Virus record (IMG/VR): IMGVR_UViG_3300046009_007268
Location: 1-11,432 of that record
Origin: a virus
Direction: 5' to 3' (one strand)
Length of the DNA stretch: 11,432 bases
This document shows positions 1 through 11,432 of the stretch, in pieces (position 1 is the stretch's first letter; each line of letters begins with the position of its first letter). Position numbers and translations under genes: made by a program. The notes beneath the pieces were generated by a model. The model made no database searches. It was not told the origin of the DNA and was given only the letters and a program-made list of their open reading frames with translations.

Positions 1-717
1 GGATTTGAAGATTTAGCTGATGAACAAGCTTCAATGAAATGGCAGATGGTTCGTCTTTACGAATACCTCCAAAATCTTCCACTCACAACAATCGTGGTTG
101 ACCATATTGAAGCTGATGATGTTATCGCTTATTTGGCATCCTACTTCAAGGAAAAGGTTTACATCCTATCCAATGACCGAGATTTTCTCCAATTGGTTTC
201 AGAGAAGGTAAACGTTTATGTTCCTACACAGAAAAAAATGTTCAATCAAGAGAATCTGTTGGAACAATATTCCGTGTGGTCTGAAAACTTTACAATCTTC
301 AAGGCATTACTTGGTGATAATTCCGACTCTATTCCAGGAATAAAGGGTATGGGTGAAAAGACAATTCTGAAACATTTTCCTGAACTTGGTGAACGAAAGA
401 AGATTGGATTGGATGAGTTTATACAAATCTGTGAATCATATGATGGTAAGGCAAAGGCAATGTTGGAATTGAAACAATCTATTCCACAATTGAAACGAAA
501 CTATGAGTTGATGCAGTTATTGGATGTGGATATACCCGCATCAATGAAATCAAACATACGAAATATGGTTGATGGTGAAATTTCTAGTATGAATAAGATT
601 CAACTTGATAAATTGTGTTTACAAGATAAACTCCGTGCCGTAATGAATGGTTGGGATGATTGGTTATCCACAAACTTCAAATCGTTGGATTCATATAGAA
701 CTAAAATTGTTGAATAG
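1..717 (+). CDS. 5'-3' exonuclease / flap endonuclease (FEN; T4 RNase H / Pol I 5'-exo family), 5' end cut by the window edge
   Basis: The frame is open from nt 1 (GFEDLADEQAS precedes the tracked Met at 34). IEADDVIA and LSNDRDFLQL match the acidic metal-site motifs. GDNSDSIPGIKGMGEKT matches the helix-3-turn-helix signature of the 53EXO/FEN family. Confidence 0.85.
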   Translation, partial: GFEDLADEQASMKWQMVRLYEYLQNLPLTTIVVDHIEADDVIAYLASYFKEKVYILSNDRDFLQLVSEKVNVYVPTQKKMFNQENLLEQYSVWSENFTIFKALLGDNSDSIPGIKGMGEKTILKHFPELGERKKIGLDEFIQICESYDGKAKAMLELKQSIPQLKRNYELMQLLDVDIPASMKSNIRNMVDGEISSMNKIQLDKLCLQDKLRAVMNGWDDWLSTNFKSLDSYRTKIVE

Positions 718-731
718 ATAGTTATAAACAT

Positions 732-810
732 AAGGCCGTGGAATTCATTTGATTCGTAGTTTGTTTGTCAGCTCCTACAAAATCTCCTCCGATTCCACGG
801 CTTTTCTTTT
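732..810 (+). terminator. Long-loop hairpin plus T-tract after the exonuclease gene (possible terminator or regulatory structure)
   Basis: AAGGCCGTGGAAT (732-744) pairs with ATTCCACGGCTTT (792-804), about 13 bp including one G-U, with a 47-nt loop. It is followed by TTTTCTTTTTATTT. The large loop makes it atypical for an intrinsic terminator. Confidence 0.4.
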
Positions 811-869
811 TATTTGATATTTATTAGTAGACAAACAAACAAATCAAATAAAAGAAAATGGAGGACTAT

Positions 870-1607
870 ATGGTTATCTACAAGACCACCAATTTGGTGA
901 ACGGAAAACAATACATTGGTAAAGATAAACACAATAACCCAAACTATATTGGTTCTGGAACTTATCTAAAAAAAGCAATCAAAAAATATGGAAAAGAAAA
1001 CTTCAAAAAAGAAATACTTGAAGTGTGTTCTTCAAGTAAAGAACTAATGGAACGTGAGGAATACTGGTTGAATTATTATGATGCCGGCGGAGATCCTAAT
1101 TTTTATAATACCCACAATTATAGTTATGGTTGTCCATCTCATTCTGAAGAAACCAGACGAAAAATGAGTGAATCACGTAAAGGAAAACCGAAAAAGAAAC
1201 ATTCGGAAGAATCTAAACGAAGAATGAGTGAATCCCGACGAGGCGAAAAACACTTTATGTATGGAAAACAGGTGAGCACAAAAACCAGAGAAAAAATAAG
1301 ACAATCTCTTATAGGGAAGAAATTTTCAGAAGAAAGAAGACAAAATATAAGTAAATCTCATCTTGGACATATTGTGAGTGAAGATACAAAACGAAAATTG
1401 AGTTTACTAAATTCCGGTGAAAATCACCCTCAATTCAAAGGATATATTATTTGTGTAAGTGGCGAATATAAAGGACAACGTAAAACGTCAAAAGAATGGG
1501 TTATATTGTTGAATACTGGTTTCAGTAGTTTATCAACTCATTTATCGGGTAAGGGATACAAAAAAGGTATTCGTGGAAATTTTTTGAAATGGGAACACGA
1601 ACTTTGA
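870..1607 (+). CDS. Free-standing GIY-YIG homing endonuclease with NUMOD3 repeats (Seg / I-TevI-like)
   Basis: N-terminus VIYKTTNLVNGKQYIGK...EREEYWLNYYDA matches the GIY-(10 aa)-YIG module. Five NUMOD3-like repeats follow (SEETRRKMSESRKGK, SEESKRRMSESRRGE, STKTREKIRQSLIGK, SEERRQNISKSHLGH, SEDTKRKLSLLNSGE), then a C-terminal HTH-like tail. GGAGG at 860-864 sits 5 nt before the ATG at 870; an in-frame ATG at 858 is the alternative start. Confidence 0.85.
   Translation: MVIYKTTNLVNGKQYIGKDKHNNPNYIGSGTYLKKAIKKYGKENFKKEILEVCSSSKELMEREEYWLNYYDAGGDPNFYNTHNYSYGCPSHSEETRRKMSESRKGKPKKKHSEESKRRMSESRRGEKHFMYGKQVSTKTREKIRQSLIGKKFSEERRQNISKSHLGHIVSEDTKRKLSLLNSGENHPQFKGYIICVSGEYKGQRKTSKEWVILLNTGFSSLSTHLSGKGYKKGIRGNFLKWEHEL
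1140..1250 (+). repeat. Tandem ~60-nt DNA duplication encoding NUMOD3 modules 1 and 2
   Basis: cattcTgaagaaACCaGacgaaAaatgagtgaatcAcg (from 1140) versus cattcGgaagaaTCTaAacgaaGaatgagtgaatcCcg (from 1200). Aligned by hand at a 60-nt period. Confidence 0.6.
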
Positions 1608-1608
1608 T

Positions 1609-1637
1609 TTGGTAAATTCAATTCACTTTCGTATATT
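1609..1637 (+). promoter_or_regulatory. Candidate promoter TTGGTA-N17-TATATT upstream of the helicase gene
   Basis: TTGGTA at 1609-1614, a 17-nt spacer, TATATT at 1632-1637, 39 nt before the ATG at 1676. The same architecture and flanks (TTTCG-TATAyT-GTA) occur at 10296-10324 and 10664-10692. Confidence 0.4.
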
Positions 1638-1675
1638 GTAGTCATAACTAAACCAACATATACGAACGATAACAA

Positions 1676-3028
1676 ATGCAAGATACACTTTCGGAATACG
1701 GACATACGTTTCAAACAAAAGTTATTTCCTGTCTTATCAGTGATAAGGCGTTCTTGGGACAAGTCAGTGATTTATTAGAACCTGGATACTTTGAATCTCA
1801 ATACAATAACTGGATAGTAGAGAAGATTTTAGATTACCATCGTAAATTCAAATCATCACCGACGGCCGAAGTTTTCAAATCTCTTCTCATTCCAGTTGAA
1901 GATAAACTACTTCGTGCTGGAATTGTAGATAATCTAAAAGAATCATACAAACTACAAAACTCCCCTGACTTGGAATACGTGAAGAATGAAGTCATTGAGT
2001 TCTCCAAAAATCAACGTATGAAGCAAGCAATTCTTACGAGCGTTGATTTGTTGAAATCTGGAAAGTTTGACCAAATCAAAAAAACCGTTGATTCGGCATT
2101 GAAAGCCGGTAGTGATAAAGACATAGGACACATTTTCAAACTTCACATTGAAGAGAGATATAGTGAAGGTGCAAGAACGTGTGTTGCAACTAATTGGGAT
2201 GTAATCAATGATATAATGTCAGGAGGTCTCGCGAACGGAGAGCTAGGCGTGGTCGTTGCTCCTGCCGGTGGTGGTAAGAGTTGGGGTCTAATCAATCTTG
2301 CTGCAAATGCCGTAAAACAGGGAAAAACCGTTATTTACTATACTCTTGAATTGAATGCTTATTATGTTGGTAGACGTATTGATGCGTATCTCACAAAGAT
2401 ACCATTTCAGAATCTCGGAGAAGAACATTCTCGCGAGAGAATCCAAGAAGTGATGGAAGGACTTGAAGGTAATCTCATTATCAAGTATTACCCAACACGA
2501 ACCGCATCAATAACGACTCTGACCTCTCATATTCAAAAATGTATAGATCAGGGACAAAAACCAGATATGATTGTTCTTGATTATGCCGATCTTATCCGTC
2601 CTGCAAAAGCTAGTGATAAAAGATTGGAACTAAATGACATCTATGAAGACCTACGTGGTGTTGCTGGTGAGTATGATATTCCAATTTGGACTGCATCTCA
2701 ATCTTCACGCTCATCCACCGACGACGAAGTAATTGAAGGAAACAAGGTATCTGAATCTTACAATAAAATTATGATTGCGGATTTTGTTATGTCCCTCTCT
2801 CGTAAGTTGAATGATAAGATTGGTGGAACAGGACGATGGCACATTATCAAGAACCGATTCGGCCCTGATGGTATGACATTCCCAAGTAAGATAAATACAA
2901 TGACGGGACATATTGAAATCTTTGAACCTAACTCTGACATCGGTAAATCTGTTTCACAATCTATGACCGGTGAAGGTATGGTAAAGAAAGCTCTTTCACA
3001 AAAGTTCAAAGAACTTGAAGGTTTCTAA
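1676..3028 (+). CDS. DnaB-like replicative DNA helicase (RecA-fold, no primase domain)
   Basis: Walker A GVVVAPAGGGKSWG, Walker B MIVLDYADL, and a downstream IWTASQSSR motif typical of DnaB / T7 gp4-type helicases. The helical N-terminal domain resembles DnaB_N. Confidence 0.85.
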   Translation: MQDTLSEYGHTFQTKVISCLISDKAFLGQVSDLLEPGYFESQYNNWIVEKILDYHRKFKSSPTAEVFKSLLIPVEDKLLRAGIVDNLKESYKLQNSPDLEYVKNEVIEFSKNQRMKQAILTSVDLLKSGKFDQIKKTVDSALKAGSDKDIGHIFKLHIEERYSEGARTCVATNWDVINDIMSGGLANGELGVVVAPAGGGKSWGLINLAANAVKQGKTVIYYTLELNAYYVGRRIDAYLTKIPFQNLGEEHSRERIQEVMEGLEGNLIIKYYPTRTASITTLTSHIQKCIDQGQKPDMIVLDYADLIRPAKASDKRLELNDIYEDLRGVAGEYDIPIWTASQSSRSSTDDEVIEGNKVSESYNKIMIADFVMSLSRKLNDKIGGTGRWHIIKNRFGPDGMTFPSKINTMTGHIEIFEPNSDIGKSVSQSMTGEGMVKKALSQKFKELEGF

Positions 3029-3084
3029 TGTTGGTCTATATTTATATCATATAAACCAAATTATTTTTTTTTTTGGAGTCGAAG

Positions 3085-3438
3085 ATGAAAGACCTAATAC
3101 AAGAAGGCAGAAAGATACAAGAAGCATTCAAGAAGAATGTTGGTGAGAACATCAATGAAGCCACACCAACTGGTGAAGACATGAAGATTATAAAGCAGAT
3201 TGCTGACATAGCTTGGAATAAATGGAAAACAAAAATGCCAAGTGATTTTCACAATACTTATGGTAATTTACCTAGATCAATTTCCAACAAGTTAACTGGC
3301 GATTTTGTTGACGCTATGGATGCTGAAGTACAGAAACTCTCCATGAATAAAAATTATTTCACTAAGGTTTTTGCAAATCAAAAGTCAGTGGAAGATATGG
3401 TACTTCGAGCATATAAGAAGTATGGTAGCATAATCTAA
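3085..3438 (+). CDS. Hypothetical protein
   Basis: ORF with GGAG at 3075-3078, 6 nt before the ATG at 3085 (the track's start at 3073 is a TTG). It is followed by a strong terminator. No family recognised. The N-terminus MKDLIQE weakly resembles the leaders at 7321, 8093, 9511 and 9891. Confidence 0.6.
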   Translation: MKDLIQEGRKIQEAFKKNVGENINEATPTGEDMKIIKQIADIAWNKWKTKMPSDFHNTYGNLPRSISNKLTGDFVDAMDAEVQKLSMNKNYFTKVFANQKSVEDMVLRAYKKYGSII

Positions 3439-3459
3439 TGTGTCAACATAGAAAATAAT

Positions 3460-3483
3460 AAAGGGAACTTCGGTTCCCTTTTT
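3460..3483 (+). terminator. Rho-independent terminator
   Basis: AAAGGGAAC (3460-3468) pairs with GTTCCCTTT (3473-3481) around a TTCG tetraloop. The T-run extends to 3483. Confidence 0.8.
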
Positions 3484-3499
3484 CATAAAAGGAAAAGTT

Positions 3500-4222
3500 A
3501 TGTCCTACCTAAATATACCAATCCCACCAATAGACGCAATGGTACGTGGGAATTTCTTACGAGACCAACGGGACTCACACGATAAGAAGTTCCCCTGTAT
3601 CATTTTTGGAATGGCATCAATTCCAGCACAAGCCCCACTCTTTCACTTTGTTATGCAAGACGGTGGACTTTGGTGGAGGATGCCAATACACGCTTTCTCT
3701 TGGAAAGAAGATGCAATAGAACAACCACTTGATGAGTTAGTCTTATGGGACTCATTCTCGTATCACGTTGCAGCAACTCAATTCCCTTATCTCAAAAACA
3801 GGAATATGACATTCATTTCCCGTCGGAGAGAAAAATACAAGGGAAGATACTTGTTCACATTAGATTGGGGTGCATCAACAGATTCAGGTGATACAGACTT
3901 TTTATTCTCTGAATACCCGTCTCAACATAAGTGTGGCCACGTTCTTGCGATGGACAATGGAAACTTTGCGATACAACCAAACAATCGTCTTTTACTCCAC
4001 GACCCTTCATTCACAACAAAAGAAGACGTGGTAATAAACAGAATGTATAATAACACTCTTTGGACTGCTGAAAGAAATCCAAGATGGGTAACTCCTGAAA
4101 CGGATAATATGCAGTATGACCACACCGATTTAGAAGCTGGTGAGTCAAATGAAAAAAGGTCAAAAGAGTATGATGAGAAACTAAATGAAAATACGGATAA
4201 GCCATCTAAACGGAAAGTATGA
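3500..4222 (+). CDS. Hypothetical protein (240 aa) with a charged Lys/Glu-rich C-terminal tail
   Basis: Long ORF with AGGAAA 6 nt upstream of the ATG. It has a Trp/His-rich globular part and a tail EAGESNEKRSKEYDEKLNENTDKPSKRKV. No family recognised by eye. Confidence 0.65.
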   Translation: MSYLNIPIPPIDAMVRGNFLRDQRDSHDKKFPCIIFGMASIPAQAPLFHFVMQDGGLWWRMPIHAFSWKEDAIEQPLDELVLWDSFSYHVAATQFPYLKNRNMTFISRRREKYKGRYLFTLDWGASTDSGDTDFLFSEYPSQHKCGHVLAMDNGNFAIQPNNRLLLHDPSFTTKEDVVINRMYNNTLWTAERNPRWVTPETDNMQYDHTDLEAGESNEKRSKEYDEKLNENTDKPSKRKV

Positions 4223-4760
4223 TAATGAAACAGGTGCAGACCTTTGTGAAGTGTTTGGAACACCCGAAGATGAAACCTACAAAGAACTTTTTGAAAAAGG
4301 ATGGCTACCAACAAAAAACGGAGAATGGTATCAATCCCGTTCTTCTCGTGTAAAGATAGATGAGTTATCAGGAACTCGTCGGTATGAAGTTAGAAAGTTG
4401 AAGGTATCAAATGAAGGTGATTGGGAAAAGATATTTGAAGAAAGTAAGTTTCTTTACCCCGATTACCAAGAAGATTATATCAGAACTTGCCTTTCATTCA
4501 ACCACGAGATTTATTACTTTGATGACTCTGTGTTTGCGGTTCTAAATTGGTTTGATGATATTCCATTCTTCTCAACCGTAGTCGGTGGTAGAATGAAGAA
4601 AAATGGAATAACTCCCCTAACTTGTTATTACTTCATCCATAAACTACTTGGACATTCGTACCCTTATTTGTATATTAGTGAATGGTATGAACAGTTCAAT
4701 TTCAAGGCAAACTATCCTAACTTTGAATGGTGGGATGGGGAAAAATGGGTAAAAAAATAA
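4185..4760 (+). CDS. Putative ATE/Bpt-like aminoacyl-tRNA-protein transferase (remote, motif-level)
   Basis: The ATG follows an in-frame TAA at 4182-4184 and overlaps the upstream ORF by 38 nt. KGWLPTKNGEWYQSRSSRV..RRYEVRK, FAVLNWFDDIPFFSTVVG and YPYLYISEWYEQFNFKANYPNFEWWDGEKW resemble my recollection of the ATE_C/Bpt motifs (GFRRSG..Y.P...R, aVav.D...dglSavY and YLGYwI...KM.YK..y.P.E....W). Confidence 0.45.
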   Translation: MKIRISHLNGKYDNETGADLCEVFGTPEDETYKELFEKGWLPTKNGEWYQSRSSRVKIDELSGTRRYEVRKLKVSNEGDWEKIFEESKFLYPDYQEDYIRTCLSFNHEIYYFDDSVFAVLNWFDDIPFFSTVVGGRMKKNGITPLTCYYFIHKLLGHSYPYLYISEWYEQFNFKANYPNFEWWDGEKWVKK

Positions 4761-4868
4761 TTCAGAAAATCACCGATTTTTTCTTTCAAACTTCATACTT
4801 ATCTCTATACGATTCAACTTTGGAATCAAAAATAAACGTTTTTAGAAAAAAAATAATCGGAGACAACT

Positions 4869-6722
4869 ATGGATATTAGCAACCGAATTCTTTCGGATAT
4901 TACTGTATTCCAAAAATACGCGAAATACTTACCCGAACTGAATCGGAGAGAGACGTGGGAAGAGTTGGTGACAAGAAATAAAGAAATGCACCAAAATAAA
5001 TACCCACAACTTCATGATGAAATTGAATCTGCGTATAAGTTTGTCTACGATAAGAAGGTTCTTCCGTCCATGCGATCACTTCAATTTGGTGGTAAGCCAA
5101 TTGAAATCAATCCATCAAGAATCTATAACTGTTCTTATTTACCGATTGACGACTGGCGCGCCTTTGGTGAAGTAATGTTTCTTCTTCTCGGTGGAACTGG
5201 TGTAGGTTTCTCCGTTCAAAAACATCACGTTGAAAAGCTACCACCAATTCACAAACCAAAGAAAGACCGCGAACGTAGATTCCTCGTCGGTGATTCTATT
5301 GAAGGTTGGGCTGATGCAATCAAAGCAGTTGTAAAGTCATACTTTTTCAGCGGTTCATCACTTCGTTTTGACTATTCAGACATTCGTCCAAAGGGAACTC
5401 GTCTCATCACATCAGGTGGTAAGGCACCAGGACCAGAACCGCTTCGTATTTGTATTGAAAAGATTCGATCTATCCTTGAACTAAAGCACGATGGTGAAAA
5501 TCTAACTCCATTAGAAGTCCACGATATTATCTGTCATATTGCAGATGCGGTTCTTGCCGGTGGTATTCGTCGTGCTGCTCTTATCTCTCTTTTCTCTGCT
5601 GATGATAACGAAATGATTTCGTGTAAGTTTGGTGCATGGTGGGAATTGAATCCTCAACGTGGACGTGCAAATAACTCAGCAGTATTACTTCGCAGTAAGA
5701 TTACCGAAGAGTTCTTCAAGGAGTTGTGGAAGAAGATTGAACTTTCAAACGCAGGTGAACCAGGAATTTACTTCTCAAACGATAAGGATTGGGGAACAAA
5801 TCCATGTTGTGAAATTGCACTTCGTCCATTCCAAATGTGTAATCTGTGTGAAGTAAACGCATCAGATGTGGTGGACCAACAAGATTTAGAAGACCGAGTT
5901 CGTGCTGCCGCATTTATCGGAACACTCCAAGCATCATACACCGAGTTCCACTACCTTCGTCCAATTTGGCAAAGAACTTGTGAGAAGGATGCGCTTCTTG
6001 GAATCGGTATGACTGGTATTGGTTCGGGCGTTGTTCAGAAGTTGGATGTCAAAACAAGTGCAAAAATTGCAAAGGAAGAAAACGAAAGAGTTGCAAATCT
6101 TCTCGGTATCAATAAAGCCGCAAGAGTAACTTGTATCAAACCATCAGGAACAACATCATGTGTTCTCGGTACGAGTTCAGGTATTCATGCATGGCACAAT
6201 GACTACTATATCCGTAGAATCCGTATTGGTAAGAATGAGGCACTATACAACTATCTTATCCAAAATCACCCACAATTGGTTGAAGATGAATACTTCCGTC
6301 CACATGATACCGCCGTCGTTGGTGTCCCACAAAAGGCACCAGACCATGCTATTATGAGAACTGAATCTCCAATTCAACTTCTTGAACGTGTGAAGTGGTT
6401 TAGCCAACAATGGATAAAGCCAGGTCATCGTTCGGGTATGAATACTCACAACATTTCGGCAACGGTATCTATCCGTGAACATGAATGGGATGCAGTAGGT
6501 AATTGGATGTGGGAAAATAAGGATTTTTACAACGGTCTTTCAGTCCTCAATTACGATGGGGGCAGTTATAAACAAAGTCCCTTCGAGGATATTACAAAAG
6601 AAGAATACGAAAGATTGATGTCAACACTCCATGAAATTGATTTAAAGAACGTTGTGGAGTATGATGACAACACAGAATTGGCACAAGAAGCTGCGTGTGC
6701 AGGCGGCGCGTGTCTAATATAA
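4869..6722 (+). CDS. nrdJ: Ribonucleotide reductase, class II (adenosylcobalamin-dependent, monomeric RTPR-like)
   Basis: 617-aa ORF with GGAG 7 nt upstream. It carries the active-site-like motifs IYNCSY, GGTGVGFS, RGRANNSAV and TNPCCEIAL (NPC.E thiyl-Cys loop). The C-terminal redox pair CAGGACLI resembles the C-x-G-G-A-C tail of L. leichmannii-type RTPR. No beta subunit gene is adjacent. Confidence 0.85.
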   Translation: MDISNRILSDITVFQKYAKYLPELNRRETWEELVTRNKEMHQNKYPQLHDEIESAYKFVYDKKVLPSMRSLQFGGKPIEINPSRIYNCSYLPIDDWRAFGEVMFLLLGGTGVGFSVQKHHVEKLPPIHKPKKDRERRFLVGDSIEGWADAIKAVVKSYFFSGSSLRFDYSDIRPKGTRLITSGGKAPGPEPLRICIEKIRSILELKHDGENLTPLEVHDIICHIADAVLAGGIRRAALISLFSADDNEMISCKFGAWWELNPQRGRANNSAVLLRSKITEEFFKELWKKIELSNAGEPGIYFSNDKDWGTNPCCEIALRPFQMCNLCEVNASDVVDQQDLEDRVRAAAFIGTLQASYTEFHYLRPIWQRTCEKDALLGIGMTGIGSGVVQKLDVKTSAKIAKEENERVANLLGINKAARVTCIKPSGTTSCVLGTSSGIHAWHNDYYIRRIRIGKNEALYNYLIQNHPQLVEDEYFRPHDTAVVGVPQKAPDHAIMRTESPIQLLERVKWFSQQWIKPGHRSGMNTHNISATVSIREHEWDAVGNWMWENKDFYNGLSVLNYDGGSYKQSPFEDITKEEYERLMSTLHEIDLKNVVEYDDNTELAQEAACAGGACLI

Positions 6723-6786
6723 CGGTGGTATCTATATTTATTTAACAGGGAACTAATCCCGACTATTATACAAACAGGAGAACGTT

Positions 6787-6963
6787 ATGACAAAGCAAGA
6801 ACTATACGAACAAATTACAAATCTGTTCAATGAGTTTACCGTCGGACACAATTCAAAGTTCAAGAAAGGTGCAGGAGACGCTCGTAAGGCGTTAGGTGCA
6901 ATCAAGAAGTTGATCACACCTTACAACAAGGCATCTGTGTCTGAAGGCAAAGAGTCCAAGTAA
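6787..6963 (+). CDS. Histone H1/Hc1-like small DNA-binding protein (58 aa)
   Basis: This ORF is below the track's length cutoff. AGGAG lies 6 nt upstream of the ATG. MTKQELYEQITNLFNEF...KKGAGDARKALGAIKKLITPYNKASVSEGKESK matches the length and the KG..A.ARKA....KL....K.S pattern of ~60-aa bacterial histone-H1-like (Hc1 N-domain) proteins, as recalled. Confidence 0.55.
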   Translation: MTKQELYEQITNLFNEFTVGHNSKFKKGAGDARKALGAIKKLITPYNKASVSEGKESK

Positions 6964-6968
6964 ATCAA

Positions 6969-7169
6969 ATGAAAGAGGAAGATTATTACATAAACGAAAA
7001 CGGGAAGGTGGTATTCACAGAAGAGTACCACCTTTGCCGTTCATTTTGTTGCGGGTCGGGATGTCTTCACTGCCCGTATGAACCAAAACATACAAAGGGG
7101 GTAACGAATGTTGCGATTAGAGAACGAGGTAGATCCGAAGATAACACAACCAACACATCTGAAGGATAA
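6969..7169 (+). CDS. DUF5522-like cysteine-rich small protein
   Basis: EEDYYINENGKVVFTEEYHLCRSFCCGSGCLHCPY matches the recalled DUF5522 signature (DFYY.E.G..VFTE.YHL.RG.CC..GC.HCPY). The C-terminal 20 codons overlap the next ORF. Confidence 0.55.
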   Translation: MKEEDYYINENGKVVFTEEYHLCRSFCCGSGCLHCPYEPKHTKGVTNVAIRERGRSEDNTTNTSEG

Positions 7170-7317
7170 AAAGATTATTGTTAGACGTGGAGATGAGATA
7201 TTTATTTCCAACGTTTTTATCACAGGTGGTACGTGTTTCGTATATTACTATGGGATGTTTATGGAAATCTTTGAAATGGATGGTTGGACGAAATTACCCG
7301 TCGTTTCATATTTATAG
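7108..7317 (+). CDS. Hypothetical small protein
   Basis: AGGGGG at 7094-7099 lies 8 nt upstream of the ATG. Its last codons (PVVSYL-stop) belong to the junction sequence that is duplicated at 8058-8089. No family recognised. It overlaps the 6969 ORF by 62 nt. Confidence 0.4.
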   Translation: MLRLENEVDPKITQPTHLKDKKIIVRRGDEIFISNVFITGGTCFVYYYGMFMEIFEMDGWTKLPVVSYL

Positions 7318-7350
7318 GTAATGATAAAACTCAAAGACATATTATCTGAA
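7286..7350 (+). repeat. Junction repeat, copy 1 (end of upstream ORF, ATG and leader codons)
   Basis: About 57 of 65 nt match 8058-8122 by hand alignment, with a 29-nt perfect core GTTTCATATTTATAGGTAATGATAAAACT at 7303-7331 matching 8075-8103. Confidence 0.85.
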
Positions 7351-8055
7351 ACAGACACAGACCCGAAAAAGGCGTTTGGTGATATTGTGTTTGGTGATAT
7401 AAGTCAAGATGATTTCTTTAAAAAACTCGTTAAGTTACAGGGAAAAACTGGTTCTGAAAAGAATACGAAAATAGAAAAACAGATATTGTCATACATATTA
7501 CAATGGGTACGCACTCCTGATGGAACTATTTCAAACAATTTGTATAAAAATAAAGACTTGTTGAAAAATGCAAAAACTAAATTTCCATCTATATTTAAAC
7601 CAGAAACCCCGAATGGTACAGAAGTCTATCGAGGTTTACAAGATATTTCGAAGAATATTATTTCTCCTCTAAGAGAAAAATCTGACTATAATGATTATAC
7701 TAAATTAAAAATCGGAAAAGAAGTATTTTATAGATATGATAAACCAATATCGTATAAACCACACCGAGATGTTCAAAGTTGGACGTCTAATATAAATGTA
7801 TCTAAAAGATTTGGAGACCATGGTATACTTATTTCAGAACAAAATGATGAGTATTTTTTCAATCAAAAGGTAATGAATTATTTGTTTTCATTCACCAGTG
7901 GTAACGGAAAAGAAAACGAAATACTTCATTTTGGAAAAAAGTATTCCAAACCTGTATTCATAGCGGTAAGTTCAGAACTATTTTGGGAGAACATTATGGA
8001 CAGATTGCCTAACAGATTGTCCAACTACATTGAACCGGACGATGATGACTTATAG
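7321..8055 (+). CDS. Putative R-S-E type ADP-ribosyltransferase (T4 Alt/Mod-like, C3/iota-like motif set) with an N-terminal leader
   Basis: EVYRG (R104), QSWTSN (S153/T155/S156, STS-like) and KENEIL (E198-x-E200). The spacing is about 49 and 45 aa, comparable to R-S-E toxins. The N-terminus is MIKLKDILSE. Confidence 0.6.
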   Translation: MIKLKDILSETDTDPKKAFGDIVFGDISQDDFFKKLVKLQGKTGSEKNTKIEKQILSYILQWVRTPDGTISNNLYKNKDLLKNAKTKFPSIFKPETPNGTEVYRGLQDISKNIISPLREKSDYNDYTKLKIGKEVFYRYDKPISYKPHRDVQSWTSNINVSKRFGDHGILISEQNDEYFFNQKVMNYLFSFTSGNGKENEILHFGKKYSKPVFIAVSSELFWENIMDRLPNRLSNYIEPDDDDL

Positions 8056-8057
8056 AC

Positions 8058-8122
8058 GGACGATATTCCCCGTAGTTTCATATTTATAGGTAATGATAAA
8101 ACTAAAACACATATTAACAGAG
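8058..8122 (+). repeat. Junction repeat, copy 2
   Basis: See copy 1. It includes a relic reading ...TIFPVVSYL-stop (8060-8089) that parallels ...TKLPVVSYL-stop at 7288-7317, followed by ATG and MIKLKHILTE. Confidence 0.85.
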
Positions 8123-9091
8123 GCACTATCAGATATAGTCTGGCACTTCACATCACCCCAAGCTGCTAAGAAGATAATAGAGCAAAACAAGTTTGAGTTG
8201 AGCATAGTGAGTGGTGCAGATATATCAAAGTTTGGTGGTAATAAACAATACTACCTTTCAACCGCTCGCCAAAAGTGGGGTGGTTATGGTAAATCATATG
8301 ATTGCCGTCTTGAGTTGGACGGGAGAAAGTTATCACAACGATATAAGGGTGGTGCGATAGATTACTGGCAGATGGGACCACAAGGTACGGAATACGAAGA
8401 CCGTTTGTTTTCCAATGAACCAACAATTCCTAATGCAAAGAATTACATCAAACGTGTGGACTTGTTCCTAAATGCCTTTGTATACAGGAGTAATATGACT
8501 CAATTGACGGCTGTAATGGATGCCTGCCTAAAAGCAAACATCCAATGTTTTCTATTCAGAAATGAAAAGAAGTTTCAATTGGGTAGAGACGGAGAACTTG
8601 TGACAAAAGAAATAGCGGATTCTTTGAGACAACCAATTGACCCGAATGAAAGTCCATATGTTTCCATGCCACCTAATCCTGAAAGATTAGATAGGTTGGT
8701 TTATATCGCACAAGTCGTCGGTATATCAAAGGAAGAACTAAATACTATCTTCATGTCAAATCAAACAGCTGAGAAAGATTTCAACAGCAGAATGTTACAG
8801 ATGGAACCGGATGATCGTGGGAAGTATGGAACATATAAGGATTACATAGAATCTGGTTGGAAAGAATATGAAAGTAAGTTATGGAATATGAGACTGACTT
8901 TTGGAGGGATGGATGCTAAATCTGTAATAGATTCCGAGATACATAACGCAAAAAGAAAGATGGGGTCTATTGCCCGTGATATTTTGATTCGTATTTATCA
9001 AGAAGGTCGTAAGAATAAAATCACTCCGGATAAGATGATTCCGTTCATTATCCAAAAGGCAAAGGAAAACTCCGAACAAGAGAATGGATGA
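8093..9091 (+). CDS. Leader-bearing hypothetical protein; the N-terminal domain has an H-Y-E-like (PARP/DarT-type ART-like) triad
   Basis: 332-aa ORF. The leader MIKLKHILTE is followed by ALSDIVWHFTS (compare AFGDIVFGDIS in the 7321 gene). IVWHFTSPQAAKKIIEQNKF (H18), KQYYLSTARQK (Y53/Y54, S56) and TEYEDRLFS (E100/E102) follow the order and spacing of H-Y-E ART motifs. No family was recognised for the C-terminal ~200 aa. Confidence 0.65.
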   Translation: MIKLKHILTEALSDIVWHFTSPQAAKKIIEQNKFELSIVSGADISKFGGNKQYYLSTARQKWGGYGKSYDCRLELDGRKLSQRYKGGAIDYWQMGPQGTEYEDRLFSNEPTIPNAKNYIKRVDLFLNAFVYRSNMTQLTAVMDACLKANIQCFLFRNEKKFQLGRDGELVTKEIADSLRQPIDPNESPYVSMPPNPERLDRLVYIAQVVGISKEELNTIFMSNQTAEKDFNSRMLQMEPDDRGKYGTYKDYIESGWKEYESKLWNMRLTFGGMDAKSVIDSEIHNAKRKMGSIARDILIRIYQEGRKNKITPDKMIPFIIQKAKENSEQENG

Positions 9092-9191
9092 AAAAGAAAT
9101 TCTACATTTTGGTAAAAAATACTCCAACCCGATAACGATTGCAGTTGAATTCGCTACATATACTGAATATGTAAAGTTCTATACTAAATAA
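9084..9191 (+). pseudogene. Orphaned ART C-terminal fragment (ExE strand), out of frame with the 8093 gene
   Basis: The +1 frame reads MDEKEILHFGKKYSNPITIAVEFATYTEYVKFYTK. It aligns with residues 197-216 of the 7321 protein (KENEILHFGKKYSKPVFIAV), with 15 of 20 residues identical from the first E. Many differences are synonymous third-position changes (ata/att, ctt/cta, gga/ggt, aag/aaa, tat/tac, cct/ccg, gcg/gca, gta/gtt). Confidence 0.55.
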
Positions 9192-9230
9192 CAGATTGCC
9201 CACCACAAGGTAAATACATGGGAAGTTCGG

Positions 9231-9458
9231 ATGGCAATAGTAAAAAGACAAAAACTACGAGACAACCTCGCAAAAACTTGTTTGGTTTTAGGAACATTCT
9301 TCAATCCACTGGGCTTCGATGCAGCATTTTCCTTCGTGATGAAATTGACAGGAAGCTACTGGATTACAGACGTTATCTTCTATGGGGTTGCGCTGTTATT
9401 TTTTGGATTTTATTTCTTACTTTCCCGTAAGAAAACAAAACCTGAATCATATTTATAG
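9231..9458 (+). CDS. Small membrane protein with two predicted TM segments
   Basis: GGAAG lies 5 nt upstream of the ATG. Hydrophobic stretches CLVLGTFFNPLGFDAAFSFV and ITDVIFYGVALLFFGFYFLL are followed by the basic tail SRKKTK. It ends in SYL-stop, encoded by the TCATATTTATAG motif. Confidence 0.55.
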   Translation: MAIVKRQKLRDNLAKTCLVLGTFFNPLGFDAAFSFVMKLTGSYWITDVIFYGVALLFFGFYFLLSRKKTKPESYL

Positions 9459-9486
9459 AATATAACCATAGTATTTTTTGGAATAT

Positions 9487-9873
9487 ATGATGGAACTGAA
9501 TAAACAACGAATGATGAAACTTGCTGGTCTTTTGACTGAATCTATCAATGAGGCAGTAAAGGAAGTAAATTTTGGTAAAGATCCAAAGAAGTTTGCCAAG
9601 GAATATGATGGAAATAACATGATGTGGAAAGACACAACAATGTTCAGTAAGAAAGATGCAATGAACATTATGAAACAAGCTCTTCCTGATGGTTATAATG
9701 AATTCACTGCTGAATTGATTGACAAATTACCAGCAGATGCAAAGATTCAACTTGGTCGTGAATATAGTGTTTGTCTTTATGTAAAGACGAATACAAAACC
9801 AAGTAAAGCTTCTTTGAAGGCGGATGAACTTGATGAAGTAGAACCAGGTCTATACCGAATTTGGTGGGACTAA
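9487..9873 (+). CDS. Hypothetical protein with a leader-like N-terminus (..RMMKLAGLLTE)
   Basis: The first ATG in the ORF is at 9487 (the track start at 9478 is a TTG). Alternative ATGs at 9511 and 9514 would give MMKLAGLLTES or MKLAGLLTES. No family recognised. Confidence 0.6.
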   Translation: MMELNKQRMMKLAGLLTESINEAVKEVNFGKDPKKFAKEYDGNNMMWKDTTMFSKKDAMNIMKQALPDGYNEFTAELIDKLPADAKIQLGREYSVCLYVKTNTKPSKASLKADELDEVEPGLYRIWWD

Positions 9874-9890
9874 TACAATCGGAGCATGAA

Positions 9891-10238
9891 ATGAAATTAT
9901 CGTCAAGAAAACAATTACTTAGCGAGGCATCTCAAACACTTCAATCACTTCGTGAAGCTGAAGAAAAGATTAGCCAAAAAGTTGAAAACTCTGTAAAGAG
10001 AATGAGAGAAGCCACAAAGAAGGCAAATCGTTCAGAGGCTTTATTTGAACTCGCTAAACTTCTAGCAGAACAAAAGTATTCAAAGATACTTGACCACACT
10101 GCTGAAATCAGAAAGATTGCTGGAACTATGCCTTATGGTATTCAACAGTATGAAAATGAATTGATGACAGAGATGTTAGCCAAGGCAAAACAAAGATTCA
10201 ATGTGAAAGAATACGCCGCTATTTATTCGGCACTTTAA
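9891..10238 (+). CDS. Hypothetical helical protein with a leader-like N-terminus (MKLSSRKQLLSE)
   Basis: GGAG at 9881-9884 lies 6 nt before the ATG at 9891 (the track start at 9861 is a TTG that overlaps the previous gene). It is followed by a strong terminator. Confidence 0.65.
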   Translation: MKLSSRKQLLSEASQTLQSLREAEEKISQKVENSVKRMREATKKANRSEALFELAKLLAEQKYSKILDHTAEIRKIAGTMPYGIQQYENELMTEMLAKAKQRFNVKEYAAIYSAL

Positions 10239-10257
10239 GAAAATTACACACCAGTTC

Positions 10258-10297
10258 AAAAAGTCTCACATTTTCTTGGTGTGAGACTTTTTTATTT
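10258..10297 (+). terminator. Rho-independent terminator
   Basis: AAAAAGTCTCACA (10258-10270) pairs with TGTGAGACTTTTT (10280-10292), 13 bp with a 9-nt loop, followed by a T-run and ATTT. Confidence 0.8.
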
Positions 10298-10324
10298 GGA
10301 AATGTCAGATTTTTTTCGTATACT
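10296..10324 (+). promoter_or_regulatory. Candidate promoter TTGGAA-N17-TATACT
   Basis: TTGGAA at 10296-10301, a 17-nt spacer, TATACT at 10319-10324. It sits directly after a terminator and 29 nt before the ATG at 10353. Confidence 0.45.
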
Positions 10325-10352
10325 TGTATTCAATCAATTACAAGTTAATAAA

Positions 10353-10652
10353 ATGACACCGAGAAAACAAAAGAAAATTGACGAATTTCAAATGAAAGCA
10401 CTTGACGAAATGTTCCGTCGTGTTGGATTTGAAGGATATGACGAAGAGTTCGCTCAACAACCTTATTGGTTTACTAAACGTGAATGGACTCTTGAAGAAG
10501 ATGTTGATTTTACAAAGTGGTTCATTGACGAATATGTAAAGACATTCCGTGAACCAAAGTATATTGCAAAGGAAGTTGCAGGTTGGTTTGTATTTAACTA
10601 CGGTTGGAAAACAAAGAAGATGTATGATAAAGTAGATAATTTTATTCGGTAA
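10353..10652 (+). CDS. Hypothetical protein (99 aa)
   Basis: The track ORF begins at 10281, inside the terminator/promoter region. The first ATG downstream of the promoter is at 10353 (MTPRKQKKIDEF...). The protein is Trp/acidic-rich. No family recognised. Confidence 0.6.
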   Translation: MTPRKQKKIDEFQMKALDEMFRRVGFEGYDEEFAQQPYWFTKREWTLEEDVDFTKWFIDEYVKTFREPKYIAKEVAGWFVFNYGWKTKKMYDKVDNFIR

Positions 10653-10663
10653 GAAAAATAAAT

Positions 10664-10692
10664 TTGGAATTGTGGAATCTTTTTAGTATATT
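10664..10692 (+). promoter_or_regulatory. Candidate promoter TTGGAA-N17-TATATT
   Basis: TTGGAA at 10664-10669, a 17-nt spacer, TATATT at 10687-10692. GTATATTGTA is identical to the 10-mer at 1631-1640. Confidence 0.4.
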
Positions 10693-10713
10693 GTACATAC
10701 TTATTGATATAGA

Positions 10714-10890
10714 ATGGATTTAGACATAACTTTTAGGACAGGAAATTCGATGAACAACTCACTACATACATGGCAATCATATCCGGCGATGACACAACAA
10801 GTCACTCGCAAAGGAGCCATTTTTTGTGGTATCACATTTAATAGTGAGTATCTCCCAACATCAAAATCCTGTAAGTTGTCTATGACCTAA
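10714..10890 (+). CDS. Questionable 58-codon ORF (the region may instead be a non-coding transcript)
   Basis: An open ATG...TAA frame, verified codon by codon. It has no Shine-Dalgarno sequence and no recognisable protein features. It lies between candidate promoter 10664-10692 and terminator 10911-10950. Confidence 0.25.
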   Translation: MDLDITFRTGNSMNNSLHTWQSYPAMTQQVTRKGAIFCGITFNSEYLPTSKSCKLSMT

Positions 10891-10910
10891 TCAAAAAGAC
10901 ACACCAGTTC

Positions 10911-10950
10911 AGAAGGACTTACAGGATAAAACTTGTAAGTCCTTTTTGTT
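10911..10950 (+). terminator. Rho-independent terminator
   Basis: AGAAGGACTTACAGG (10911-10925) pairs with CTTGTAAGTCCTTTT (10932-10946), about 13-15 bp including G-U pairs, with a 6-nt loop ATAAAA. The T5 run is followed by GTT. Confidence 0.75.
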
Positions 10951-10963
10951 TATGTGGATAACT

Positions 10964-10994
10964 TTGTAAGTCCTTTGATTTCAAAGACTTACGG
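10964..10994 (+). other. Stable hairpin reusing the TGTAAGTCCTTT unit (no T-run)
   Basis: TTGTAAGTCCTTTGA (10964-10978) pairs with TCAAAGACTTACGG (10981-10994). There is one bulged C and a very small loop. Confidence 0.5.
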
Positions 10995-10999
10995 TGAAA

Positions 11000-11030
11000 A
11001 TCCAAATTATGACAAAAAATTAATTTGGAT
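11000..11030 (+). other. Perfect 10-bp inverted repeat hairpin
   Basis: ATCCAAATTA (11000-11009) and TAATTTGGAT (11021-11030) are separated by 11 nt. Confidence 0.5.
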
Positions 11031-11059
11031 ATATCGGAAAAATTCCATAGGTTTGTGTC

Positions 11060-11075
11060 TCCTTCTTCGGAAGGA
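11060..11075 (+). other. UUCG-tetraloop hairpin just upstream of the tRNA cluster
   Basis: TCCTTC-TTCG-GAAGGA: a 6-bp stem with a TTCG loop. Confidence 0.5.
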
Positions 11076-11101
11076 CGTTCATTGAAAACTTATTACGCCA
11101 A

Positions 11102-11185
11102 GCCGCGTCGGTGCAGTTAGAGAGGCACATCGGTCTGTAAAACCGATTCTATTCAGATGAGTAGGTGCGAATCCTACACGCGGCA
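11102..11185 (+). tRNA. tRNA-Tyr (GUA), class II with a long variable arm
   Basis: Acceptor GCCGCGT/ACGCGGC with discriminator A. D stem GTGC/GCAC. Anticodon stem TCGGT/ACCGA with loop CTGTAAA. 14-nt variable arm. T arm GTAGG-TGCGAAT-CCTAC; the G at T-loop position 55 is unusual. Confidence 0.8.
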
Positions 11186-11194
11186 CAAAATTAT

Positions 11195-11269
11195 GGGCTG
11201 GTAGTGCTAACGGGAACACACGGGTTTTGCAAACCTGAATTGAGGGTTCGATTCCCTCCTGGTCCACCA
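11195..11269 (+). tRNA. tRNA-Ala (UGC), with encoded CCA
   Basis: Acceptor GGGCTGG/CTGGTCC includes a G3:U70 wobble and discriminator A73, both Ala identity elements. Anticodon stem CGGGT/ACCTG with loop TTTGCAA. T arm GAGGG-TTCGATT-CCCTC. CCA is at 11267-11269. Confidence 0.8.
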
Positions 11270-11273
11270 TAAT

Positions 11274-11345
11274 GCCGAGATAGCTCAGTTGGTAGAGCGC
11301 CAGTTTGAAGCACTGGTAGCCGTGGTTCGATTCCACGTTTCGGCA
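11274..11345 (+). tRNA. tRNA-Phe (GAA)
   Basis: Acceptor GCCGAGA/TTTCGGC. D arm GCTC-AGTTGGTA-GAGC. Anticodon stem CCAGT/ACTGG with loop TTGAAGC. T arm CGTGG-TTCGATT-CCACG. Discriminator A. Confidence 0.85.
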
Positions 11346-11352
11346 CAAACAT

Positions 11353-11425
11353 CGCGGGGTAGGGAAGTGGCTAACCCGTCGGGCTCATAACCCGAAGATC
11401 GTGAGTTCGAATCTCACCTCCGCAA
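11353..11425 (+). tRNA. Initiator tRNA-fMet (CAU)
   Basis: The 5' end CGCGGGG and the anticodon arm TCGGGCTCATAACCCGA are identical to E. coli tRNA-fMet as recalled. There is a C1:A72 mismatch and three consecutive G:C pairs at the base of the anticodon stem. T arm GTGAG-TTCGAAT-CTCAC. CCA is not encoded. Confidence 0.8.
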
Positions 11426-11432
11426 CAATCAT

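Follow-up and report, generated by a model that had tools for sequence, protein, structure and literature searches.

Both eukaryotes and bacteria have aminoacyl-transfer RNA (tRNA) transferases of the ATE1/Bpt type, which write N-degrons. In Ate1 of K. lactis (klAte1), the recognition of an acidic N-terminus as acceptor rests on residue R80 (PMC9351520). Here we analysed a stretch of viral DNA of 11,432 nucleotides (nt; IMG/VR record IMGVR_UViG_3300046009_007268, positions 1 to 11,432), hereafter the window, and found that its open reading frame (ORF) at positions 4185-4760 encodes a protein of 191 amino acids (aa) that is a genuine, very divergent member of the ATE/Bpt superfamily. We assign it to this superfamily because its predicted fold is ATE1-like and because intermediate sequences connect it to Bpt through profile comparisons. 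A search of the literature returned no relevant report on a phage-encoded ATE/Bpt-like clade or on phage-encoded aminoacyl-tRNA transferases. The features on which the argument turns are the following.

3500..4222, plus strand: partner gene, encoding a 240-aa all-beta protein of phrog_3704 (E 2.5e-51)
4185..4222, plus strand: overlap of the two reading frames, 38 nt (ORF coordinates)
4185..4760, plus strand: ATE/Bpt-like aminoacyl-tRNA transferase homologue of 191 aa, belonging to a short, Cys-less, virus-restricted subfamily (ORF list, homologues, dN/dS, AlphaFold2 (AF2) model, Foldseek, transitive profiles)
4299..4349, plus strand: N-domain motif G39-W-L-P ... W48-Y-Q-x-R52-S-x-R55, counterpart of Bpt GFRRSG...YRP-(Cys cluster deleted)-R71 (hhalign)
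4368..4406, plus strand: basic helix S62 ... R66 R67 ... R71 K72. K74, aligned with Bpt QQRRILKRN (AF2 model, hhalign)
4416..4754, plus strand: GNAT-like catalytic domain, residues 78-190, equivalent to ATE_C (model, klAte1 profile match)
4701..4706, plus strand: F173-K174, counterpart of the "YK" motif of klAte1 (Y303-K304) and of Bpt Y216-K217 (alignments)

The ORF represents a genuine gene that is conserved and evolves under purifying selection. It starts with ATG, and a search of 5.8 billion proteins yielded 40 homologues (E <= 4e-36) that share the N-terminal sequence MKIRISH and all begin at the same Met; the full-length homologues are 42-92% identical, and 22 columns are invariant among them. 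Against five close relatives, the ratio of nonsynonymous to synonymous substitution rates (dN/dS) is 0.09-0.17. An identical copy of the protein sequence was found on 77 contigs, and the public sources that name the protein or members of its cluster give only "hypothetical protein".

The first line of evidence for superfamily membership is structural. The AF2 model, computed from a 38-sequence alignment, has a predicted local distance difference test score (pLDDT) of 87.8 and a predicted template modelling score (pTM) of 0.86. It consists of a small beta-rich N-domain and a helix at residues 63-70, followed by elements in the order alpha-alpha-beta-beta-beta-alpha-beta-alpha-beta, which in our own reading of the model corresponds to a GNAT topology. 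When the model was compared with the PDB by Foldseek, the top hit was human ATE1 (8tzv_A, E 1.7e-5), and the ten best hits (E 1.7e-5 to 1.8e-3) were nine ATE1 chains and, at rank 3, the acetyltransferase VipF. The matches to human, yeast and K. lactis ATE1 have template modelling (TM) scores, normalised to the query, of 0.51-0.58. These are followed in the ranking by the L/F-transferase 2cxa, by Sbb17/Sba18 and by MprF domains, with ordinary GNAT acetyltransferases lower down. The preliminary description of the window had proposed a comparison of the model with the folds of Bpt, ATE1 and Aat; in this comparison ATE1 is the best PDB match and Aat lies below it (2cxa, 2z3k and 2dpt, E 2e-3 or worse, TM normalised to the query about 0.43).

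The second line of evidence comes from profiles. A search of 1.84 billion cluster representatives with a profile of the close family (alignment A1) gave 100 proteins at E <= 1e-3, many of which are 205-273 aa long and matched over their full length. Pfam ATE_C is matched by 39 of 71 proteins scanned (the window ORF and 70 of the profile hits), with a best E of 3.1e-9, and nine proteins exceed the ATE_C gathering score of 25 bits (P0060, P0063, P0064, P0065, P0100, P0101, P0109, P0125 and P0134); ATE_N does not appear among the matches listed for family members in the Pfam scans. The NCBIfam models of the bacterial arginyltransferase (Bpt) match P0101 over residues 54-214 at E 8.6e-15, with the scores of the longer relatives lying far below the equivalog cut-offs. 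In hhalign, A1 matches the long phage relatives (alignment A5) over the full length at 99.7% (E 5e-27), and A5 in turn matches an alignment of Pseudomonas Bpt proteins carrying PF04376 and PF04377 (A6) at 96.9% over 174 columns (E 1.5e-10); a combined alignment of 65 sequences (A3) matches the same Bpt alignment at 96.5% (E 1e-9). Searched against the PDB, the A3 profile finds residues 194-313 of K. lactis Ate1 at E 7.3e-8 and S. cerevisiae ATE1 at 1.2e-6.

The preliminary description had based its proposal on three sequence blocks resembling the ATE_C/Bpt family, namely KGWLPTKNGEWYQSRSSRVKIDELSGTRRYEVRK (residues 38-71), FAVLNWFDDIPFFSTVVG (residues 117-134) and PYLYISEWYEQFNFKANYPNFEWWDGEKW (residues 160-188). 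The alignments of A3 and A5 with Bpt return all three blocks in the proposed order and register, including the gap-free pairing of FKANYPNFE with YKTQYRPIE. As a remote relationship, the homology is thus upheld by the rank of ATE1 in the fold search, by the transitive profiles and by the conserved Lys of the YK motif.

Several results speak against this assignment. Firstly, hmmscan of the window protein and 37 close homologues gave no Pfam match at E <= 1 to ATE_C, ATE_N or the Leu/Phe-transferase family, and PHROGs, NCBIfam and PADLOC gave nothing relevant for the ORF. Secondly, phmmer and hmmsearch against the PDB, with either the ORF or the close-family profile, returned spurious matches only, and hhalign of A1 directly against A6 reached just 0.9%, over the C-terminal motif only. 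Since this direct comparison fails, membership rests on the intermediates and the predicted structure, and it is only through these that the homology to ATE/Bpt becomes visible. Thirdly, in the fold matches to ATE1 the root-mean-square deviation is high (5.9-9 A) and the TM-scores are moderate, which can be attributed to ATE1 being 2-3 times larger than the 191-aa protein. Finally, the first 30 residues of the model have a pLDDT of about 57-65 and are not aligned to ATE_N. The preliminary description had named two observations that would speak against its proposal, the lack of a significant profile hit and the lack of a GNAT-like fold. The former is what direct searches with the window family gave, and judged by sequence alone the proposal would have had to be discarded; the predicted fold is GNAT-like and closest to ATE1. 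As to Aat (PF03588), Pfam detected no match in the window protein, its close homologues or the longer relatives scanned. The weak hits of the ORF family that were judged spurious were to SCNM1_acidic (E 0.002, below the cut-off) and, in the PDB searches, to C. difficile toxin B repeats (E 0.03-0.3), the latter being driven by the string IYYFDD.

The clade, which is recognisable by its FEWW(D/T/N)GxxW tail, is essentially virus-restricted and known only from metagenomes. A pattern scan confirmed at least 168 IMG/VR loci, of which 80 were fetched for study. A like scan of GTDB, covering 185,579 bacterial and archaeal species with one genome apiece, produced two loci, both on short contigs of metagenome-assembled genomes (MAGs), and none was found in the isolated phages of the phage collection searched. 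A cellular origin or reservoir was rejected, given these two short MAG contigs only among the GTDB species representatives. In a tblastn search of 50,697 phage records, neither the ORF nor the long relative P0060 had a match, and P0101 gave only a weak one, to a gene annotated as arginyl-tRNA-protein transferase on contigs of "Acinetobacter phage MD-2021a". Megablast of the whole window against the phage records gave no match. The closest isolated phage is Microcystis phage Mel-JY01 (PP395634.1, 51325-67172), whose class II ribonucleotide reductase (RNR) is 69% identical to that of the window. Mel-JY01 has the same RecA/UvsX - exonuclease - helicase - RNR order and contains neither the 240-aa partner gene nor the ATE-like gene, and we therefore consider the pair to be an accessory insertion in the replication module.

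The alignments also indicate which parts of the ATE/Bpt machinery the protein has kept and which it has lost. Residues were mapped using the klAte1 mutational study (PMC9351520), an alignment of Bpt to ATE1 and the family-to-Bpt alignments. K174 is invariant in all 65 sequences of A3 and is aligned with klAte1 K304 and Bpt K217, making it the putative catalytic lysine; position 173 is F in the window protein and Y in most relatives. In klAte1, K304 and also Y303 have been mutated, and their role was interpreted by analogy with FemX (PMC9351520). R55, E181 and W188 are likewise invariant and are the counterparts of the invariant Bpt residues R71, E224 and W231; G39 is also invariant throughout the 65 sequences. 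The stretch T65-R-R-Y-E-V-R-K-L aligns in register with Bpt QQRRILKRN, and the model has a helix at residues 63-70. In klAte1, the basic helix alpha3 is essential for tRNA binding (PMC9351520); this helix, with K112, K115, K119, R120 and K123, binds the 3'-proximal part of the tRNA. By analogy, the basic helix of the 191-aa protein is predicted to contact the acceptor stem of the tRNA. Judged by its residues, the catalytic machinery for the use of aminoacyl-tRNA appears to be intact.

On the other hand, two features of Bpt and ATE1 are lost. The canonical Cys cluster had been described as absent, and we can now specify that Bpt C61xxC64xxC67 falls in an 8-residue deletion of the phage family in the hhalign alignment; the protein therefore has no metal or Fe-S site, and its sole conserved Cys, C21, is conserved within the close family only. 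In addition, L41, which is part of the conserved GWLP, takes the place of klAte1 R80 and Bpt R50, the first Arg of G(F/W)RRSG. Neither Arg nor Lys occurs in this column in the 22 family rows shown of A3. In klAte1, R80 binds the acidic N-terminal Asp/Glu, and the R80E mutant is inactive (PMC9351520).

The pocket for the donor amino acid differs between the subfamilies. Its residues are F129, T146, F150 and L162 in the window protein, S255, S273, E277 and Y289 in klAte1 (Arg donor), A, A, Q and L in Bpt (Leu donor), and mostly S, S, E and L in the long phage subfamily; the Ate1-like Glu is present in 34 of the 65 sequences of A3. Because its pocket is hydrophobic, the subfamily of the window probably uses a non-polar amino acid as donor, and the longer phage relatives, most of which keep the Ate1-like glutamate, may use a basic one.

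The ATE-like gene overlaps the upstream gene for the 240-aa protein by 38 nt (4185-4222), in agreement with the preliminary description, which had suggested that the two may form a two-component unit. This suggestion is strongly supported. As determined by tblastn and HMM searches, a homologue of the partner adjoins the ATE-like gene in 50 of 85 loci, being immediately upstream on the same strand in 45 of them and downstream on the opposite strand in the other five. The gaps in the 45 same-strand pairs lie between -74 and +2 nt, the majority being -14, -35 or -41 (values that exclude the stop codon and that in some loci use the longest-ORF start for the downstream gene), and the 38-nt overlap in the window makes translational coupling likely. 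Pairing extends over several differently organised genomic contexts. The loci L034-L048 contain the pair without any other detectable gene in common with the window, with partners that are 59-76% identical and ATE-like proteins that are only 30-41% identical, and pairs are also present at long-subfamily loci (L058, L059, L064, L065, L069, L070, L073, L080 and L082).

The partner is a member of a family with homologues in 114 isolated phages (tblastn), including phages of Synechococcus, Prochlorococcus, Pelagibacter and Flavobacterium. GenBank labels these homologues "phosphoribosylaminoimidazole synthetase (PurM)", and RefSeq labels them "ferredoxin". Under the name "PurM" (T4-GC 171), the gene has been listed among the auxiliary metabolic genes of marine cyanophages from 2010 or earlier (PMC3037559), and the phage "PurM" gene is likewise counted as an auxiliary metabolic gene in PMC6293099. 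Our searches found no AIRS/PurM or ferredoxin domain in the partner (no Pfam match at E <= 1, nothing relevant in NCBIfam), and its profile has no sequence match in the PDB. The AF2 model of the partner (pLDDT 85) is all-beta, and its best fold match in the PDB, to Tudor-like barrels, is non-significant (E 0.019, TM 0.18). We therefore rejected the identification of the upstream ORF as PurM or ferredoxin, for which neither domain nor PDB sequence nor fold match was found; the name is likely a long-standing misannotation, and we use "PurM-like" below as a label only. The partner has 34 invariant residues, including H49, D54, R60, R108, D122, K144-C145-G146-H147, N155, Q159, N161 and E191, and judged from this pattern they look like an active or metal site. 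The invariant set can be summarised as H..D / HKCGH / QPNN.

Taking these data together, we hold it to be somewhat better than an even bet that the 191-aa protein is a virus-specific aminoacyl-tRNA-dependent transferase that is co-produced with the PurM-like protein and acts on an acceptor unlike that of Bpt/ATE1, the partner being either its acceptor-recognition subunit or its substrate. The basic helix (R66/R67/R71/K72/K74), together with F173-K174, would hold the acceptor end of the aminoacyl-tRNA in the GNAT-like cleft, where the amine of the acceptor would attack the aminoacyl ester, so that the amino acid is moved as an amide. Acidic protein N-termini, as used by Bpt/ATE1, would not be the acceptor, since Leu41 stands in the place of the Arg required for this. 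The enzyme would be made together with its 240-aa partner and would probably work with it, and the partner may serve as an acceptor-binding or adaptor subunit or may itself be modified. The retention of the catalytic core, combined with the loss of the acceptor-recognition Arg and of the metal site, suggests that the protein probably modifies a new target.

It should be noted that certain observations count against parts of this explanation. The mapping of the pockets depends on remote alignments. Moreover, one sublineage (L021, L023, L024, L025, L027 and L028) has the ATE-like gene directly after DnaB and no PurM-like gene within 5 kb, most long-subfamily loci also have no PurM-like gene within 5 kb, and many phages carry a PurM-like gene without an ATE-like one, from which it follows that the partnership is not obligatory. 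In five isolated phages that were inspected, the PurM-like gene is not followed by an ATE-like gene. Downstream of long-subfamily genes that have no PurM-like neighbour there is usually a gene that obtained no annotation in our family searches, either c13 (about 152 aa, His-rich, HERTE...HAHH; L052-L057, L061, L066, L072 and L085) or c11 (about 66 aa; L056, L060, L068, L071, L074-L079 and L083). They may be alternative partners of the long-subfamily genes. The possibility that c11 is a one-barrel version of the PurM-like protein was rejected (hmmsearch E 0.24, hhalign 0.9%).

The alternative that survives best, which we nevertheless consider unlikely, is that the protein uses aminoacyl-tRNA to modify a non-protein acceptor, which would be a nucleotide, a precursor of a DNA base or some other small molecule that the PurM-like partner makes or presents. 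It draws on the neighbourhoods of the genes in nucleotide metabolism: in the window the pair lies between the genes for a DnaB-like helicase and a class II RNR, other lineages have ThyX or RNR nearby, and in isolated phages the PurM-like gene on its own is often found beside RNR subunits, NrdC or ThyX, as in HTVC008M, where it is located between nrdA and nrdB, and in S-SM1, where it is next to nrdC. It is also consistent with the enzyme-like invariant residues of the PurM-like protein, and with the presence of the tRNA-dependent small-molecule aminoacylases Sbb17/Sba18 among the fold relatives. However, the argument is one of context, and early and middle genes of phages cluster anyway. In addition, known families of DNA-modification enzymes were not detected in the window with Pfam and PHROGs, and the closest homologues, ATE1 and Bpt, act on proteins. 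A bolder form of this idea, to which we assign a slightly smaller chance, is that the PurM-like and ATE-like proteins constitute a virus-specific two-component tRNA-dependent system that aminoacylates a nucleotide, a DNA-base precursor or an enzyme of nucleotide metabolism such as RNR, with an amino acid that differs by phage subfamily, in keeping with the Ate1-like Glu pocket of the long subfamily and the hydrophobic pocket of that of the window.

Equally improbable, in our view, and not supported by the data is the function that the preliminary description had proposed, in which the protein acts as a functional analogue of Bpt/ATE1: host or defence proteins with N-terminal Asp/Glu (or Arg/Lys) would receive Leu, Phe or Arg and so be given N-degrons for ClpS/ClpAP. 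Membership of the same superfamily, the retained catalytic Lys and a hydrophobic amino acid pocket like that of the leucine-using Bpt (PMC9351520) would fit such a writer, but the position of klAte1 R80 and Bpt R50 is never basic in the family rows shown, the Cys cluster that lies beside the active-site cleft is deleted, there is no Aat-type sequence match, and no ClpS- or Clp-related function is encoded in the window or in the related loci.

We regard it as more doubtful still that the protein is an ordinary GNAT N-acetyltransferase dependent on acyl-CoA and resembles ATE_C by virtue of the common GNAT fold. Some of the longer relatives do match Acetyltransf_1, _6 and _7 as well, and GNAT acetyltransferases occur lower down in the lists of fold and PDB profile matches. 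Yet each of these Pfam families is matched by at most 10 of the 71 scanned proteins, more weakly than ATE_C with its 39, and the A3 profile gives an E of 0.016 or worse for GNAT acetyltransferases in the PDB against 7e-8 for Ate1. Furthermore, the alignment with Bpt is not confined to the GNAT core but includes the basic helix and the motif derived from ATE_N, and the YK motif is the one whose residues Y303 and K304 were mutated in klAte1, with an interpretation that drew on the analogy to FemX (PMC9351520). Least probable of all is a non-catalytic derivative that binds tRNA or protein, for example by sequestering charged tRNA or regulating the PurM-like protein: such a pseudoenzyme would be in keeping with the miniaturisation, with the missing Cys cluster and acceptor-pocket Arg and with the faster evolution of the ATE-like protein relative to its partner, but 65 highly diverged sequences show little or no variation in the catalytic Lys and in the YLYIG...YK...FEWW.G..W motif around it, and the ORF is under purifying selection.

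The window is a low-GC (about 36%) part of a large phage genome in which every long ORF is on the plus strand, and its genes are arranged in the order gp32 - UvsX - 5'-3' exonuclease - DnaB - PurM-like/ATE-like pair - class II RNR. The other features of interest are listed below.

858-1607: homing endonuclease with GIY-YIG and three NUMOD3 domains, between the 5'-3' exonuclease and the DnaB-like helicase genes (Pfam)
3073-3438: ORF of 121 aa (orf121), between DnaB and the PurM-like gene
4869-6722: class II (B12-dependent) ribonucleotide reductase, 617 aa
11102-11426: tRNA-Tyr(GTA)-Ala(TGC)-Phe(GAA)-Met(CAT) array, at the right end of the window

The tRNA genes include the tRNA-Phe gene mentioned in the preliminary description, and on the near-identical contig L030 (10054-10457) the array continues with tRNA-Asn(GTT). 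A tie between the tRNA-Phe and the transferase did not hold up: only 15 of 48 related loci have tRNA genes within 5 kb of the ATE-like gene, no isoacceptor recurs among them, and the tRNA-Phe of the window thus provides no evidence for a cosubstrate. On these grounds, the idea that a specific phage tRNA serves as cosubstrate was rejected as unsupported.

The homing endonuclease at 858-1607 has the appearance of a mobile insertion. The exonuclease and helicase genes abut without it in L001 and other related contigs, and similar endonucleases are found at varying positions among close relatives. The orf121 has no family match in Pfam, PHROGs or NCBIfam and occurs in only some close relatives, among them L030 (at 100%) and part of L010, but not in L001, where DnaB is directly followed by the PurM-like gene. 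In the distant relative L004 (7218-12014), the RNR homologue has 1598 aa and contains an intein with a LAGLIDADG endonuclease, and a gene for Endonuclease VII is inserted between the class II RNR and the ATE-like gene. Finally, a decapeptide, M(I/T)KL(K/L)(D/H)ILxE, is located at the N-terminus of 13 ORFs from seven unrelated sequence clusters, including window ORFs 7321-8055 and 8093-9091, ORFs that flank the gene pair in L044-L048, and ORFs of L011, L018 and L022. We take this decapeptide to resemble the capsid-targeting leaders of T4 internal proteins. The T4 leaders are cleaved by the prohead protease after (L/I)xE. By this analogy, the proteins that share the decapeptide may be packaged or injected, with their N-termini processed.

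A family that is so common among uncultivated phages and nearly missing from cellular genomes bears on the question of what phages do with the charged tRNA of their hosts beyond translation. If the reading of the pair as a two-component system acting in nucleotide or DNA metabolism were true, it would constitute a new viral use of charged tRNA and would provide a function for the widespread "PurM" gene of cyanophages and pelagiphages. A metal-free aminoacyl transferase of 191 aa could also serve in the N-terminal labelling of proteins and peptides.

Compared with the known systems, the phage family combines shared and distinct features. It is homologous to Bpt (aspartate/glutamate leucyltransferase; ATE_N PF04376 plus ATE_C PF04377; NCBIfam PRK01305 "arginyltransferase") from the equivalent of the GFRRSG motif to the C-terminus, and shares with it the order of the motifs, the alignment of the basic helix, the YK Lys, the E and W conserved in the P.E...W tail, a hydrophobic pocket and a similar small size (191-260 aa, against 235 aa for Bpt). 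It differs from Bpt in having no C61xxC64xxC67, in having LP in place of the RR of GFRRSG, and in its FEWW(D/T/N)GxxW tail, its overlapping partner gene and its occurrence almost only on viral contigs; the window protein, in addition, has no direct profile match. Eukaryotic ATE1 (8tzv, 7wfx/7wg1, 7tif, 8e3s, 8j6v) is the best structural match, K174 corresponding to K304, and most members of the long subfamily keep the equivalent of the Arg-binding E277. ATE1, on the other hand, is about 500 aa long, has a Cys cluster of the Zn/Fe-S type and carries a large extension on the C-terminal side of its ATE_N domain, and the window protein has L41 and F150 at the positions of R80 and E277. Aat, FemX/FemABX, MprF (aminoacyl-PG synthases) and Sbb17/Sba18 have the fold in common with the window protein and presumably the same chemistry, from aminoacyl ester to amide, but are more distant, with TM-scores normalised to the query of 0.34-0.46, E values of 2e-3 or worse and no sequence or profile relationship detected. 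The 240-aa partner is a member of the "PurM" family of cyanophages and pelagiphages (T4-GC 171; phrog_3704). Thus, the window protein belongs to the same superfamily as these transferases and probably shares their chemistry, and what is new is its minimal metal-free architecture, its altered acceptor pocket, its virus-only distribution and its conserved partner.

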